In this document: positions 26,770 to 54,852 of the stretch, one piece after another
Position numbering within the stretch: the first letter of the stretch is position 1
How the letters are laid out: each line of letters begins with the position of its first letter
DNA from: Candidatus Levyibacteriota bacterium
Lineage (GTDB): Bacteria; Patescibacteriota; Microgenomatia; Levybacterales; UBA12049
DNA: 64,000 nucleotides
Assembly (NCBI GenBank): GCA_038254115.1
Contig: JBBSGK010000002.1
Coordinates: forward strand, 5,589-69,588
Reading direction: 5' to 3'
Position numbers and translations under genes: made by a program
The notes under the pieces: model-generated
Told to the model about the DNA's origin: nothing
Databases searched by the model: none
What the model saw: only the letters and a program-made list of their open reading frames with translations

Positions 26770-27366
26770 ATGAGAAAAATTTTTGTGCTCGAATTTATTA
26801 CTATGGATGGCGTCATACAGGCACCTGGCGACTCCAAAGAAGATGCAGCCGAAGGCTTCAAATATGGTGGTTGGATGGGGCCATATTTTGGAAAAGATGA
26901 GATTGCGGGTCTGGAGATGGAGAAACAAATGAAGAAGACAGCTGGCCTGCTCCTCGGACGCAATACATATGACATCTTTGCGGGATTTTGGCCTAAAAAT
27001 ACCGAGTCTTGGCCACAAGTAAACAAAATCACTAAATATGTTGTCTCAAAAACCCTCCAAAAACCCACATGGGAAAATACTATCGTTATAAAAGACATTG
27101 AAGCATTAAAAAAACTCAAAGACTCGGACGGTCCAAACCTCCAAGTCTATGGAAGTGCAAATCTAATTCAGTCACTAATGGAGCAAGATTTGGTTGATGA
27201 ATTTTGGCTGAAAATATTTCCTGTTACTCTCGGGACAGGAAAACGGTTGTTTGACAAAGGCACTATCCCTGTATCTTTCAAGCTCTTCGACTCTAAAATT
27301 TCCCAAAATGGTATCATTTTTGCATACTACAAGCGTGCAGGAGATGTCAAAACGTCTGAAGTGTAG
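26770..27366 (+). CDS. Dihydrofolate-reductase-family protein (RibD C-terminal/YwjB-like reductase domain), paralog 1
   Basis: FITMDGVIQAPG, LLLGRNTYDIF, VYGSANLIQSLM, FPVTLGTGKRLF. 198 aa, typical size for the family. Confidence 0.7.
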   Translation: MRKIFVLEFITMDGVIQAPGDSKEDAAEGFKYGGWMGPYFGKDEIAGLEMEKQMKKTAGLLLGRNTYDIFAGFWPKNTESWPQVNKITKYVVSKTLQKPTWENTIVIKDIEALKKLKDSDGPNLQVYGSANLIQSLMEQDLVDEFWLKIFPVTLGTGKRLFDKGTIPVSFKLFDSKISQNGIIFAYYKRAGDVKTSEV

Positions 27367-27387: not shown

Positions 27388-27407
27388 CCTGCCTGCCGGC
27401 AGGCAGG
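27388..27407. repeat. Perfect 20-bp palindrome CCTGCCTGCCGGCAGGCAGG (copy A of dispersed palindromic element)
   Basis: Read directly. Identical 20-mer at 54716-54735. Imperfect copy at 32501-32519. Confidence 0.9.
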
Positions 27408-27482: not shown

Positions 27483-28094
27483 ATGAGGAAAATCATCACT
27501 ACTACATTTATAACTCTTGATGGCGTTATGCAAGCTCCTGGAGGACCGGATGAAGATACCTCAAACGGCTTCAAGTACGGAGGTTGGCAGCTTCTGGGCT
27601 GGAATCAAGAGGATGAAGTGGCAGACAAGATTCTGGACAGCTTTATGAAGACTCCTTTTGAGCTGCTCTTGGGAAAACGCACCTACGAAATCTTTGCAGC
27701 ATACTGGCCAAACGACAAAAAAGAGCCAAGTGTGGCAAATCCGTTCAACAGTACGAAGAAGCATGTGGTCGCACATAAACCTTTTAAACTTTCATGGAAC
27801 AATTCTGCGCTTATTACGGGAGACGTGATTTCGGAAATAAAAAAGCTTAAAGATTTAGACGGTCCCGACCTGTGGGTGTGGGGTAGCGGCAACCTCATAC
27901 AAACGCTTCTAAAACATAATCTGATAGATCAAATGCATATCTTGACATACCCCATTACTATTGGCAGCGGTAAAAAATTATTCGCCGAAGGAACTCGTCC
28001 TGAAAAATTCACTCCGGTAGACACAAAAATCACCTCAACAGGCGTAATATTTGCAACCTACGAACCCTCAGAACAACTCAAAATAGGATCTTAA
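27483..28094 (+). CDS. Dihydrofolate-reductase-family protein, paralog 2 (tandem duplicate)
   Basis: FITLDGVMQAPGGPDED, LLLGKRTYEIFAAYWP, VWGSGNLIQTLL. The upstream ~40 bp (TTCAATGAATTAACGGTnTnGTAGAATTGnTTAAATGAG) duplicates that of paralog 1. Confidence 0.7.
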   Translation: MRKIITTTFITLDGVMQAPGGPDEDTSNGFKYGGWQLLGWNQEDEVADKILDSFMKTPFELLLGKRTYEIFAAYWPNDKKEPSVANPFNSTKKHVVAHKPFKLSWNNSALITGDVISEIKKLKDLDGPDLWVWGSGNLIQTLLKHNLIDQMHILTYPITIGSGKKLFAEGTRPEKFTPVDTKITSTGVIFATYEPSEQLKIGS

Positions 28095-30876: not shown

Positions 30877-31485
30877 ATGACTACAAATATCTATCTAGTC
30901 CGTCATGGAGAGGTTCACAATCCAAAAAAAATCGTTTATGGACGATTGCCAGGATTCCGTCTTTCGACAAAGGGTGTTCTAGAGGTTGAACAAACAGCAA
31001 ATTTTTTGATAGACAAAAATATCAGCACGATATATTCCAGTCCTCTTCTAAGAGCTAGGCAAACAGCCAAAATAATTCAAAAAAAATTATATTTGCCAAA
31101 TGTTTTTTTAACAAAAGACTTATTAGAAGTTAAATCATCAGCTCAAGGAGAATTAAGTTCCAAGCTGGATCTTATTCATCACAATTATTACGCGGCGCCC
31201 GTTTGGCAAAAAAACGATGACACAATGCACAGTATCAGAGATCGAATGAGTAAAGTATTTAAAAGACTGGCAAATAAACACCATGGTCAATCAGTTGCCG
31301 TAGTATCCCACGGAGACCCGATTTTAATCCTGAAAGCATATATAAATAATTTGCCCATGGAACTCGCAACGATCAGAAAAGAAAAATATGAACTGGGTCA
31401 CGCCGAAATATTAAAAATAGAACAAATCGACAATAAATTACCTACCATAAAGAGCGTTTTTTGCCAAAAATATGAAACTTTATAA
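30877..31485 (+). CDS. Histidine phosphatase family protein (phosphoglycerate-mutase-like)
   Basis: IYLVRHGEVHN (RHG catalytic His), RARQTA, VSHGD. Confidence 0.75.
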   Translation: MTTNIYLVRHGEVHNPKKIVYGRLPGFRLSTKGVLEVEQTANFLIDKNISTIYSSPLLRARQTAKIIQKKLYLPNVFLTKDLLEVKSSAQGELSSKLDLIHHNYYAAPVWQKNDDTMHSIRDRMSKVFKRLANKHHGQSVAVVSHGDPILILKAYINNLPMELATIRKEKYELGHAEILKIEQIDNKLPTIKSVFCQKYETL

Positions 31486-32671
31486 TACTTTGTCCCGCAA
31501 ACTGGAAGAATTTACTCCAATTGATGGCAAAACTGTCAAAATGTATGTTTGTGGAATAACTCCCTATGACACCACGCATCTGGGGCATGCATTCACATAT
31601 ATTTTTTTTGATGCACTGCAGCGTTTTTTAAAGTACAAGGGATTTAGCGTGGAATATACCCAAAACGTCACAGATATTAATGACCGTGACAACGATATCC
31701 TCAAACGGGCACAAGAACAAAGCGTCACGTGGCAAAATCTTGCAAAGTTCTGGACAGATAAATTCCTCTCTGATATGGAAGAGCTGAATTGGATAAAACC
31801 TGACAATTATCTATTTGCCAGCGAAAAAATACCCGCAATGATTGATCTGATTGAAAAACTAATTAAGAACAAAAAAGCATATCAAGTAAATGGGGGAGTG
31901 TACCTGGATATTTCTAAGATCAATGATTTTGGTAAACTATCCCGATTGCCGCAGGAAAAAATGCTAAGTATTGCAAAAGAATTTGAAGAAGATCTGAGCA
32001 ATCCTGACAAGTATCATCCGCTTGATATAACATTGTGGAAACCAACAGCTAATAATCAGGCTGAACATGTTCCGTCATTCGAAAGTCCGTTCGGCCCGGG
32101 ACGCCCTGGTTGGCATATGGAATGCTCAGCAATGGCAATTAAATCTCTTGGCGAGCAGATAGATATTCATGGCGGAGGAGTGGACTTGATATATCCTCAT
32201 CACGAGTCTGAGATAGCCCAATCAGAGGGAGGGACTGGTAAAATCCCTTTCGCGAGGTTTTGGCTTCACAATCAGATTGTAAGCTTTAAAGGAAAAAAAA
32301 TGTCTAAATCTCTTGGAAATTTGGTGATGGTCTCTAATCTTTTGAAAAAATATTCACCAAATGCAATACGATATCTACTGCTTTCCCATCATTATAGAAA
32401 AGAGTGGGAATTTCATGAAGCGGAATTGGAAGAGGCGGAGAAAAAAATAAACGTGATTAAATCGGCGCTAGATGGTTATTCTTCGAACGGAGAGTTCGAT
32501 CTGCCTGCCGGCAGACAGGGAACAAACAATGAAACAATTAAGCAGTTTAATAATTTTTTGGATGATGACATGAACACTCCTAAGGCACTGGAAGTATTGG
32601 TAAAATCTGCTGAAAAAGGAAATTATGAGGAATTAAAGAAAATGTTATATATTTTAGGTTTTAAGTTTTAA
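31472..32671 (+). CDS. cysS: Cysteinyl-tRNA synthetase (compact form)
   Basis: HIGH-type motif TTHLGHA, KMSKS motif, C-terminal DDDMNTPKAL anticodon-binding helix. Carries an in-frame copy of the palindromic element (DLPAGRQG). Confidence 0.85.
   Translation: MKLYNTLSRKLEEFTPIDGKTVKMYVCGITPYDTTHLGHAFTYIFFDALQRFLKYKGFSVEYTQNVTDINDRDNDILKRAQEQSVTWQNLAKFWTDKFLSDMEELNWIKPDNYLFASEKIPAMIDLIEKLIKNKKAYQVNGGVYLDISKINDFGKLSRLPQEKMLSIAKEFEEDLSNPDKYHPLDITLWKPTANNQAEHVPSFESPFGPGRPGWHMECSAMAIKSLGEQIDIHGGGVDLIYPHHESEIAQSEGGTGKIPFARFWLHNQIVSFKGKKMSKSLGNLVMVSNLLKKYSPNAIRYLLLSHHYRKEWEFHEAELEEAEKKINVIKSALDGYSSNGEFDLPAGRQGTNNETIKQFNNFLDDDMNTPKALEVLVKSAEKGNYEELKKMLYILGFKF
32501..32519. repeat. Imperfect copy B of the palindromic element (CTGCCTGCCGGCAGACAGG) inside cysS coding sequence
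   Basis: Read directly. Core TCTGCCGGCAGA is perfectly palindromic. In frame, encoding LPAGRQ. Confidence 0.7.
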
Positions 32672-54154: not shown

Positions 54155-54363
54155 GATTTGGCATTTGTCCTCTTGGTAATCTTATCAATTAGTAAAAGCA
54201 ATTTCTGCTAGAGTAGTTGGGGTTAATGTCGTACAAAACTTATTAGCACTTTGTCCTAATGGTTACAAAATGTTAGAATTTGTAGCGATGATAATCCTTA
54301 CTTATAAAAAGATTTAAATTTATGGACAAATAGCTAATTATATTGATTTAACAACCTAATTAG

Positions 54364-54446
54364 TGCGGACGAGAGGAGTTGAACCTCCACACCCTTTCGG
54401 GCACTACCACCTCAAGGTAGCGTGTATACCATTTCACCACGTCCGC
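54364..54446 (-). tRNA. tRNA-Leu (anticodon GAG), long variable arm
   Basis: Reverse complement GCGGACGTGGTGAAATGGTATACACGCTACCTTGAGGTGGTAGTGCCCGAAAGGGTGTGGAGGTTCAACTCCTCTCGTCCGCA. Anticodon loop TTGAGGT. Confidence 0.8.
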
Positions 54447-54686
54447 TTATTGAATTTCTGCAATTTCCTTAATTATTTCTCTTCCGTAACCCGACTTAAA
54501 AAATAATTCTAATTTCCTAGCATCACCTCTGGTTGAACAAATTTCTACGTGAATTAATTCCGCAGGTAACATATGTCTCGTTGCGCTCATTTTACCCGAA
54601 AAGTGTTCAATCAATCTTTTGTCTAATGTTACCAGTTTGTCCTTTATAAAATTTATTATTCTTAATGCTTTTGAGAATATAAACAT
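54447..54686 (-). CDS. Small GIY-YIG-superfamily nuclease (COG2827/UPF0213-like)
   Basis: 79 aa. LDKRLIEHFSGK...ARKLELFFKSGYGREIIKEI aligns with the conserved RRLxEHNSG...ARxxExFLKSGxGRxF core of the family. The N-terminal GIY-YIG strands are degenerate. Confidence 0.55.
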   Translation of the reverse strand: MFIFSKALRIINFIKDKLVTLDKRLIEHFSGKMSATRHMLPAELIHVEICSTRGDARKLELFFKSGYGREIIKEIAEIQ

Positions 54687-54715
54687 AAAACATGTATTCG
54701 GTTAGCTTGTATACC

Positions 54716-54735
54716 CCTGCCTGCCGGCAGGCAGG
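54716..54735. repeat. Perfect 20-bp palindrome CCTGCCTGCCGGCAGGCAGG (copy C), 30 bp upstream of the GIY-YIG gene
   Basis: Read directly. Identical to 27388-27407. Confidence 0.9.
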
Positions 54736-54751
54736 ATTTCACCACGTCCGC
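54736..54751. repeat. 16-bp direct repeat ATTTCACCACGTCCGC duplicating the 5' end of the tRNA-Leu(GAG) gene (54431-54446)
   Basis: Identical 16-mers at 54431-54446 and 54736-54751 bracket the GIY-YIG gene and the palindrome. Confidence 0.85.
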
Positions 54752-54769
54752 AGTCCTATTGTTTACTTG

Positions 54770-54852
54770 TGCCCAGGAGAGGAGTTGAACCTCCACGCCC
54801 TTGCGAGCACTGGCACCTGAAGCCAGCGTGTATACCATTTCACCACCTGGGC
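54770..54852 (-). tRNA. tRNA-Leu (anticodon CAG), long variable arm
   Basis: Reverse complement GCCCAGGTGGTGAAATGGTATACACGCTGGCTTCAGGTGCCAGTGCTCGCAAGGGCGTGGAGGTTCAACTCCTCTCCTGGGCA. Confidence 0.8.

Follow-up and report, generated by a model that had tools for sequence, protein, structure and literature searches.

The window analysed here, a 64-kb stretch of DNA taken at its full length, holds three copies of a 20-nucleotide palindrome, CCTGCCTGCCGGCAGGCAGG, which we call PAL (Table 1). A sequence scan places exact copies at 27388-27407 and 54716-54735, just as the first-pass annotation had reported. The third copy, TCTGCCTGCCGGCAGACAGG, has two mismatches to CCTGCCTGCCGGCAGGCAGG and lies inside cysS; the same annotation had recognised this imperfect copy and its in-frame reading LPAGRQG, but its 19-mer covers only positions 2-20 of a copy that spans 32500-32519. 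No more copies occur in the 64 kb, even when up to six mismatches are tolerated, and 100 dinucleotide-preserving shuffles of the window returned no match.

Table 1. Features at and around the three PAL copies of the window
Feature	Position	Strand	Remarks
RibD_C paralog (PF01872)	26770-27366		on one side of the copy 1 spacer
PAL copy 1	27388-27407	none	exact, solo; in the spacer between two RibD_C paralogs
RibD_C paralog (PF01872)	27483-28094		on the other side of the copy 1 spacer
cysS, CysRS gene (PF01406)	31472-32671		LPAGRQG in frame ahead of DDDMNTPKAL
PAL copy 3	32500-32519	+	degenerate (C1>T, G16>A); in-frame (D)LPAGRQ(G); hypervariable CysRS loop
Promoter-like site	54909-54881	-	could drive the whole unit
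tRNA-Leu(CAG)	54769-54852	-	18 nt upstream of the remnant
Remnant, left part GCGGACGTGGTGAAAT	54736-54751	-	identical to positions 1-16 of the intact tRNA-Leu(GAG)
PAL copy 2	54716-54735	-	exact; D-loop of a tRNA-Leu(GAG) 5'-half remnant
Remnant, right part GGTATACAAGCTAACC	54700-54715	-	remainder of the D-arm plus the 5' strand of the anticodon stem; departs from the intact gene in two places
Small GIY-YIG (UPF0213/SLX1-like) ORF	54447-54693	-	apparent frameshift
Intact tRNA-Leu(GAG)	54363-54446	-	begins GCGGACGTGGTGAAATGGTATACACGCTACC; 5' half duplicated upstream of the nuclease ORF

PAL stands out from its surroundings by composition, with 75% GC against about 40% for the window, and apart from PAL the 64 kb contain just five perfect hairpins that are GC-rich and have a stem of 7 or more. 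The sequence is of low complexity, (CCTG)2CC followed by its complement. It contains no stop codon in any frame, and as RNA it is predicted to fold into a hairpin of -17.5 kcal/mol.

Copy 1 lies in a 116-nt spacer with a RibD_C paralog on either side and, together with a flanking A and T, forms a 22-bp palindrome. Once PAL is removed, the flanks of copies 1 and 3 show no similarity to tRNA. The window belongs to a Microgenomates-like bacterium of the Candidate Phyla Radiation, and the best named relatives of its CysRS come from Levybacteria and Daviesbacteria. No record of the exact CysRS protein was found; the nearest genome has 72% CysRS identity and a single RibD_C gene, and is too distant for an empty-site comparison at either copy.

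On the evidence of protein alignment, the cysS copy is an insertion in a variable loop. The LPAGRQ segment is gapped in nearly all of 30 aligned CysRS orthologs, where it falls in a hypervariable loop, and the nearest ortholog (72% identity) is 7 residues (21 nt) shorter at this point. The first-pass annotation had proposed this alignment, and had argued that a coincidental sequence would show itself as a segment conserved in the CysRS of unrelated species and a palindrome limited to these copies; what we found is an inserted segment and a palindrome that recurs widely. Two orthologs have hairpins of their own in this region: one (P0007) carries, at a distance of three codons, the 21-nt sequence CCTGCCTGCCGGCA-A-GGCAGG, in which PAL is longer by one base, and another (P0003) has an unrelated hairpin, TCGAGAAGCGAGAGTTCTCGA, in the same loop. 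Most of the likely coding copies of PAL that we found elsewhere are read in the LPAGRQ frame as well.

Copy 2 has the most informative surroundings. Read along the minus strand, the locus consists of tRNA-Leu(CAG), an 18-nt spacer, GCGGACGTGGTGAAAT, PAL, GGTATACAAGCTAACC, 6 nt, a GIY-YIG ORF and tRNA-Leu(GAG). The ATG of the ORF is at 54693, which puts copy 2 22 nt upstream; an in-frame TGA follows at 54609-54607, the C-terminal 54 residues are in another frame, and the final TAA (54449-54447) directly adjoins tRNA-Leu(GAG). When PAL is taken out, the joined flanks of copy 2 match the 5' end of the intact tRNA-Leu(GAG) at 28 of 29 positions, with a score of 27 against a shuffle maximum of 15. 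Copy 2 is therefore an exact 20-nt insertion into a D-loop, with neither duplication nor loss of target sequence. The analysis bears out the earlier proposal of a palindromic element that recurs and is inserted, as opposed to a chance sequence. The position of copy 2 within a tRNA-gene remnant and the sharing of the 20-mer across phyla were both absent from the first-pass annotation.

With its one frameshift repaired, the window ORF matches the GIY-YIG domain PF01541 at E = 4.5e-14, and an HMM of the family matches the window at 54449-54701 (E = 5e-18). We built a profile, A2, from the alignment of four GIY-YIG proteins encoded next to PAL. Compared with the PDB, it retrieves the UPF0213 structures 1ywl (EF2693; 3.4e-13) and 1zg2 (BH0048; 1.4e-10) and, more weakly, the SLX1 nuclease domain (6seh; 3.8e-4) and I-TevI (8e-4). 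In a protein search the profile reaches more than 7,350 proteins at E <=1e-8, the named matches coming from WWE3, Omnitrophica, Chitinophagales, Cytophagales, Dokdonia, Leeuwenhoekiella and Ekhidna lutea. The proteins encoded in the arrangement described below have 77-101 residues and consist of the catalytic domain with no separate DNA-binding domain. To our knowledge, the UPF0213/YhbQ family has solved structures and no known function, and we know of no activity for proteins of about 80 residues. SLX1 is a structure-specific endonuclease that cuts branched and stem-loop DNA; given the match to both UPF0213 and the SLX1 nuclease domain, a substrate of this type would suit the partner of a hairpin. 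Unlike SLX1, the small protein has no SLX4-like partner, and its role looks selfish rather than one in repair.

How general is the arrangement seen at copy 2? We fetched metagenome loci by protein similarity alone, with A2 as the query, and retained 45 non-redundant loci, of which 42 have enough upstream sequence to be judged. Within 130 nt upstream of the ORF start, PAL with up to three mismatches is present in 24 of these 42 protein-selected loci, and 13 of the copies are exact. This is our key result, and it settles in the affirmative the co-occurrence with GIY-YIG genes that the first-pass annotation had suggested looking for. An intact tRNA follows within 120 nt downstream of the ORF in 29 of the 45 loci, and in 27 loci a remnant of at least 18 nt from the 5' part of this downstream tRNA lies upstream of the ORF. 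The resulting unit, which we call the cassette, has a regular order: a tRNA 5' remnant, an ORF of about 80 residues for a stand-alone GIY-YIG protein of the UPF0213/SLX1 clade, and then the same tRNA in intact form, which starts 0-12 nt after the end of the ORF or overlaps it. The tRNAs involved are those for Leu (several anticodons), Lys, His, Phe, Asn, Gly, Gln, Ile, Arg and Val.

In at least 14 independent cassettes, alignment of the remnant with its intact tRNA reveals a clean insertion of 20 nt and leaves the tRNA side ungapped. The insertion point, compared in 19 remnant/intact pairs, falls between tRNA positions 10 and 23, in the D-arm, with one case at position 30; in the same pairs, the left piece of the remnant is 97.5% and the right piece 93.9% identical to the intact tRNA. 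When all GC-rich perfect hairpins in the 3-kb cassette loci are considered, 33 of 74 lie within 150 nt upstream of the ORF. PAL is not the only hairpin found there. Cassettes that lack it mostly carry other GC-rich hairpins, often of the TCCGCC...GGCGGA type (L376, L391 and L418 have other hairpins or none), four loci have two hairpins in one remnant (L392, L395, L402 and L384), and in L406 another hairpin is nested in the centre of PAL. In two loci, L397 and L380, the remnant is downstream of the ORF, and it is in this remnant that the hairpins are found; what the hairpin accompanies is therefore the dead piece of tRNA rather than the 5' untranslated region. Some cassettes have decayed, such as L083, which keeps only seven ORF codons, and L015, where only the remnant and PAL are left.

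The same layout occurs in organisms that are only remotely related. In Dokdonia an exact PAL in the D-loop of a tRNA remnant is followed by the ORF and then by the intact tRNA, in the cultured Ekhidna lutea a tRNA-Leu remnant holds two PAL-like hairpins, an exact PAL occupies a tRNA-Asn remnant in two Omnitrophica MAGs, and a Chitinophagales locus (L118) has PAL in a tRNA-Leu remnant; the cassette is also present in WWE3 (L037) and in a viral contig (L153). Conversely, genome loci selected for PAL contain 8 UPF0213-like genes in 0.85 Mb (9.5 per Mb), 4 of them within 15 nt of PAL, against 0 such genes in 1.87 Mb of viral loci without exact PAL. PAL is a hallmark of this unit of remnant, UPF0213 gene and intact tRNA in several phyla and in viral contigs. 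A scan of the window and of 11 cassette loci at Rfam gathering thresholds returned tRNAs only. Neither PAL nor the cassette turned up in full-text literature searches, in which the sequence itself was among the queries; subscription journals may contain earlier work. Seen against this survey, the window contains one decayed cassette, made of copy 2 and a frameshifted nuclease gene, and two solo copies, 1 and 3. With its nuclease gene frameshifted, the window would depend on a further copy located elsewhere for any activity in recent times.

Does the hairpin serve the cassette, where selection would keep it in cis? It would then be functional there and nowhere else, blocking deletion between remnant and tRNA, preventing mis-pairing in the precursor or controlling nuclease expression, and the solo copies would be debris of cassette decay or products of gene conversion rather than of transposition. 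PAL does split a direct repeat of 35-45 nt into pieces of about 10-23 and 8-30 nt, and both the tracking of the remnant rather than the ORF in L397 and L380 and the existence of decayed cassettes (L083, L015) agree with such a role. The sequence of PAL variants gives a hint in the same direction, and only a hint since the loci are not independent: 8 stem substitutions leave the sense strand paired by way of G-U, and 2 disrupt its pairing (A-C). Over the 90 nt upstream of the ORF, the sense strand folds better than the antisense strand in 34 loci and worse in 7, a comparison confounded by the tRNA-derived sequence, for which reason we place no weight on it. However, many solo copies are bare 20-mers in continuous sequence, as in L085, in L146, in the centre of PAL itself and in the CysRS loops of two orthologs, and cassette decay cannot produce these. 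Moreover, PAL occupies different points in different tRNA species, so that many independent gains are implied. We regard a purely cis-acting hairpin as improbable.

An exact-match scan with one genome per species recovered PAL in at least 120 genome stretches. Among the Patescibacteria it occurs in Parcubacteria, Saccharibacteria, WWE3, Uhrbacteria, Daviesbacteria, Doudnabacteria and Peregrinibacteria; among the Bacteroidota its hosts include the cultured Winogradskyella, Flagellimonas, Longitalea and Flavivirga; and it is further found in Omnitrophota, Planctomycetota, Bdellovibrionales, Thermodesulfovibrionales, Chloroflexi, uncultured Gammaproteobacteria and a MAG deposited as a complete chromosome. 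Viral contigs contribute 35 stretches, and some of these contigs have three to six copies. The flanks of PAL in the different taxa are unrelated to one another, and the taxa with PAL coincide with those in which we found the nuclease family. The genome loci were examined as 8-kb pieces; loci L001-L121 (0.93 Mb) and the window together contain 7 additional exact copies and 10 with one to three mismatches, or about one extra copy per 55 kb in PAL loci, compared with three copies in the 64 kb studied here. A second palindrome shared across taxa, TCCGCCAGCTGGCGGA, is present in 7 of 120 PAL loci.

The low complexity of PAL might be taken to favour chance, convergent slippage of CCTG/CAGG units, or even a sequencing or assembly artefact. 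Other observations go against this. A control palindrome of matched composition is absent from viral contigs, among which PAL is present in 35 stretches, and shuffling of the window yields no match. The PAL stem carries a CCGG loop in 40 of 140 cases, whereas on a control stem matched in composition the commonest loop accounts for no more than 5 of 94; the CCGG fraction is inflated because the PAL set includes loci fetched for exact PAL, which leaves the absolute contrast unaffected. PAL also keeps a fixed architectural position, and its presence in cultured isolates (Winogradskyella, Flagellimonas, Longitalea, Flavivirga and Ekhidna) and in the complete-chromosome MAG is hard to ascribe to assembly. 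An origin by coincidence or artefact is scarcely credible.

For a general picture of where PAL sits, we used 162 non-redundant copies. They are depleted in coding sequence: open frames of 150 codons or more contain 40% of the copies and 81% of random positions, and in low-GC loci 14% lie within called ORFs, against 70%. The orientation of the neighbouring genes and the frequency of PAL at gene 3' ends or in convergent spacers show no bias beyond that of random intergenic positions. The flanks have a single preference: across 324 half-sites, T is found at +1 in 41% and A is avoided there (9%), so that A is favoured just 5' of PAL. Exact 7-nt direct repeats surround 5 of the 162 copies, compared with 0.06% in controls, an enriched and rare configuration. 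In 6 of 162 copies the palindrome continues into the flanks for 4 nt or more (controls, 0.5%), and looser direct or inverted repeats are enriched about threefold. PAL is nested at the centre of another PAL in L018 and L042, and lies in the loops of other hairpins in L079, L113, L019, L067 and L049. It is often found within tandem heptamer arrays (L101, L082, L122 and L143), which we considered as possible footprints of repeated insertion and excision.

This distribution can be set against the idea of a host regulatory hairpin, that is, a terminator, mRNA stabiliser or protein-binding site kept genome by genome, as has been proposed for REPs. A mostly intergenic location and a stable predicted fold (about -17.5 kcal/mol) are what one would expect of such a signal. 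An intrinsic terminator is excluded, as PAL has no T tract (its flanks are tagtcaac and atttcacc) and was not called by a terminator scan. The lack of preference for gene 3' ends or convergent spacers tells against regulation more generally, as does the presence of PAL in coding loops, dead tRNA halves and other hairpins, and identity in unrelated phyla is unexpected of a host-specific signal. This reading is very improbable, if a little less so than coincidence.

About one in ten copies lies in tRNA-like DNA, at sites that include remnant D-loops, a T-loop (L029) and a variable loop (L146). The latter belongs to a viral tRNA-Met of 92 nt, which ARAGORN continues to recognise as a tRNA, and in L085 a bare 20-mer occupies the D-loop of a complete tRNA. 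A search with an nhmmer tRNA profile for matches that span the junction gave 8 of 162 copies against 2 of 1610 controls, and is too insensitive a measure, having missed copy 2. Conversely, about 90% of the sampled copies are not beside a tRNA remnant or a GIY-YIG gene, and their flanks have little in common. All-against-all clustering of the ORFs within 2.5 kb of PAL in 155 loci revealed no recurrent transposase; the recurrent gene families are GIY-YIG and PF05635.

These solo copies raise the question of whether the nuclease has anything to do with the spread of PAL. PAL might be an independent stem-loop parasite, moved by other machinery, for which dead tRNA halves are a safe haven: insertions into working tRNA genes would be lethal and purged, the GIY-YIG cassette would create the dead halves in which PAL accumulates, and the nuclease would merely be a neighbour. 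That most copies are far from any GIY-YIG gene is readily explained in this way, and so is the occurrence of PAL in unrelated hairpin loops and in the T and variable loops of tRNA-like DNA. The remnants with other GC-rich hairpins, or with two, and the second cross-taxon palindrome in 7 of 120 PAL loci point in the same direction. However, the remnants are still 94-97% identical to the intact tRNA, and nearly all of them hold a hairpin; with remnants so young, insertion of PAL must be either very fast or coupled to the formation of the cassette. No other gene family recurs near PAL. Its identity across phyla requires a vehicle, and the cassette, which also occurs in a viral contig, is the only one found; the match between PAL taxa and nuclease-family taxa is a further argument against a mere neighbour. 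We think it unlikely that the nuclease is a bystander, while giving this possibility more weight than the other alternatives considered above.

We favour the reading that PAL is the non-autonomous hairpin partner of a tRNA-gene-invading cassette with a UPF0213/SLX1-like nuclease, and that copies elsewhere are solo descendants; we would give it a probability of roughly 55%. Part of it can be stated plainly. PAL is a discrete module of exactly 20 nt, inserted precisely and without target-site duplication, and it was gained many times, at varied D-arm points of different tRNA remnants, in hairpin loops and in coding loops. The cassette is the home of PAL and probably its vehicle between genomes. 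The association in the sequences examined may reflect a link between the nuclease and the movement of PAL.

How might such a partnership work? PAL may be carried between phyla by the cassette, whose presumed targets, tRNA genes, are universal, and within a genome the PAL of the cassette would give rise to solo copies. A structure-specific nuclease would probably make breaks at DNA stem-loops. A GIY-YIG nuclease by itself cannot join DNA, and the hairpin may be installed at the break by host repair or ligation. Once in place, it would disable the dead tRNA half, for which we see three candidate roles: it could split the 35-45-nt direct repeat, so that recombination would no longer delete the cassette; it could destroy the target site of the nuclease; or, as a competing RNA fold, it could keep the dead half from interfering with the folding of the tRNA precursor. 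A simple model in which PAL confers immunity to the nuclease is incomplete, because the adjoining intact tRNA keeps an unbroken D-arm.

The closest parallel is offered by REP sequences and their RAYT genes. The RAYT gene is flanked by its own dispersed hairpins, most copies of which are far from the enzyme gene, and REPs insert without target duplication (PMC2817692). REPs were connected with RAYTs through a pattern that PAL shares, the hairpin being present at most of the genes and the majority of hairpins lying at a distance from them (PMC2817692). PAL resembles REPs as a short GC-rich palindrome within the 20-40 bp range, mostly extragenic and inserted without target duplication. The first-pass annotation had indeed considered a REP-like element, a classification that we do not retain: PAL starts with CCTG and has no GTAG/CGTC tag at its end, no RAYT gene was found by ORF clustering within 2.5 kb of PAL in 155 loci, and PAL is identical in many phyla and not species-specific, whereas REPs, which exceed 100 copies per genome, are lineage-specific. 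PAL is, moreover, a single perfect 20-mer as opposed to a doublet of imperfect 20-40-mers, and its partner is a GIY-YIG nuclease inside a tRNA-gene duplication instead of a Y1/HUH transposase. A MITE, mobilised by a transposase and marked by terminal inverted repeats and a target-site duplication, is rejected on other grounds, as at least 14 insertions in tRNA remnants lack a target-site duplication and exact 7-nt repeats accompany only 5 of 162 copies.

The cassette itself has a counterpart in phage T4, where SegB is a GIY-YIG homing enzyme that recognises a conserved tRNA-gene motif (PMC2330249). Both have a GIY-YIG gene among tRNA genes and, if our reading of the cassette is right, tRNA genes as targets; an ORF of this kind in or beside a conserved target gene is what characterises a homing cassette, along with a separate DNA-binding domain and site-specific double-strand cleavage of the empty allele. 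Unlike SegB, the cassette protein has about 80 residues, is limited to the catalytic domain and belongs to the UPF0213/SLX1 clade, and the cassette duplicates part of the tRNA, carries a hairpin in the leftover half and resides in cellular genomes of several phyla.

Two further families of palindromes invite comparison. Rickettsia palindromic elements (RPEs) have 100-150 bp and are known only from Rickettsia. The likeness noted in the first-pass annotation is real in one respect, since PAL also occurs in frame in coding genes, at tolerant surface loops, and leaves the protein intact (the window's cysS and P0007). It does not extend to membership of that family: the unit has exactly 20 nt, not 100-150, is spread across phyla, and needs a compensating 1-nt change to stay in frame, as in the 21-nt form of P0007. 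The GC clusters of yeast mitochondria are likewise short and GC-rich palindromes of an AT-rich DNA; spacers, a coding gene and the clusters themselves all serve as their insertion sites, and the genome that harbours them also holds mobile endonuclease genes. They are longer and more variable than PAL, differ from it in hosts and sequences, and have no known enzyme in common with it.

A bolder formulation would join PAL and the UPF0213-type nuclease, with its roughly 80 residues, in a mobile system not recognised before, in which stem-loops (the D-arms of tRNA genes and other hairpins) would be nicked, a 20-nt hairpin installed without duplication, and phyla and phages crossed by way of universal tRNA genes. 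We put this forward tentatively, as a possibility that is somewhat doubtful at present. The mechanism of insertion stands a real chance of being of a new kind. If the mobile-system reading is true, no smaller mobile DNA element would be known, and PAL would provide the first case of hairpin repeats driven by an enzyme of the GIY-YIG type.

Non-coding DNA very rarely keeps 20 nt unchanged over a range that extends from CPR bacteria through Bacteroidota, Omnitrophota and Planctomycetota to phage contigs; such identity points to a selfish element with an exceptionally broad host range. PAL explains the recurrent PAGRQ or LPAGRQ peptides and the split or odd tRNA calls in metagenome annotations, and the cassette provides GIY-YIG proteins of the UPF0213/YhbQ type with a genomic context as well as a role that can be tested. 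Should the nuclease indeed move the hairpin, the system would add a new example to the cases in which hairpin repeats and enzymes coexist, and would represent a new route of DNA insertion, targeted to stem-loops and free of duplication. For the biology of small-genome bacteria, the consequence is that their tRNA genes are routinely invaded and partly duplicated.

Two layouts of the cassette (a tRNA 5' remnant, a small GIY-YIG nuclease ORF and an intact copy of the same tRNA) bear on how it reaches its sites. At positions 1440-1820 of L371, a cassette locus, a tRNA-Leu(UAG) remnant lies 5' of the ORF and the intact tRNA-Leu(UAG) lies 3'. The acceptor stems are unlike, GCCGGGG in the remnant versus ACCAGAG in the intact gene, so that one copy derives from another lineage; we take this mismatch as an indication that the cassette arrived horizontally. 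At L395/L396 and L400, the nuclease ORF is followed by a second tRNA remnant, carrying the 20-bp palindrome PAL, and then by the intact tRNA. These tandem remnants suggest repeated rounds of insertion at one tRNA gene.

The targets of the cassette are not limited to tRNA genes, since an HsdS gene (PF01420, type I restriction specificity) in a Thermodesulfobacteriota MAG (L060, 3780-4330) contains both PAL and an in-frame GIY-YIG domain of the cassette nuclease family. The domain is inserted at the conserved LVPQDPND motif; PAL is present at the junction, and the motif is partly repeated.

In the window, the first base of tRNA-Leu(GAG) adjoins the stop codon of the GIY-YIG ORF (54449-54447). 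The apparent frameshift in this ORF (see table) falls in an A-rich run at about 54610-54625, and a TGA stands in frame at 54609-54607; the ORF is either a decaying pseudogene or the product of an assembly error.

PAL also occurs within the variable loop of a tRNA-Met gene on a viral contig (L146, 2239-2330). ARAGORN continues to recognise this gene, as a tRNA of 92 nt whose extra arm is long. The related contig L123 (8570-8660) shares this insertion, and there a T-arm deletion follows it. In CysRS, at least three orthologs, including the window cysS product, carry hairpin inserts in one hypervariable loop; this points to a site where insertions recur and are tolerated.

In many cases PAL lies between the units of short tandem heptamer arrays (those tabulated, among others), with units such as aattacg, tctaaaa, ggtgaga and tatttcg. 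As a result, PAL is sometimes flanked by exact direct repeats of 7 nt. Genes of the PF05635 four-helix-bundle family ('23S rRNA intervening sequence protein') recur near PAL, at five loci. At L050, tandem heptamer repeats with PAL inside them precede such a gene and, in an Omnitrophica MAG, a GIY-YIG cassette lies directly 3' of one.

Positions of features associated with PAL and the cassette nuclease
Feature	Locus	Position	Remark
Heptamer array holding PAL	L101	1800-1860
Heptamer array holding PAL	L082	330-390
Heptamer array holding PAL	L122	10560-10680
Heptamer array holding PAL	L143	6600-6670
CysRS loop insert	window	32490-32530 region	degenerate PAL
CysRS loop insert	L419 (P0007)		PAL+1, 21 nt
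CysRS loop insert	L420 (P0003)		hairpin unrelated to PAL, TCGAGAAGCGAGAGTTCTCGA
GIY-YIG ORF	window	54447-54693, minus strand	broken by apparent 1-nt frameshift
PF05635 gene near PAL	L050	3330-3480
PF05635 gene near PAL	L424	498-872
PF05635 gene near PAL	L126
PF05635 gene near PAL	L121	14376-14733

Other hairpins also recur. A second perfect palindrome, TCCGCCAGCTGGCGGA, or its loop variants (TCCGCC...GGCGGA), was found in unrelated taxa at 7 of 120 PAL loci (L011, L016 and five more among L001-L120), and this type is also present 5' of GIY-YIG ORFs (L382, L385, L394). CCCGATAGCTATCGGG likewise recurs, at three loci. PAL may be one of a set of cross-phylum hairpins.
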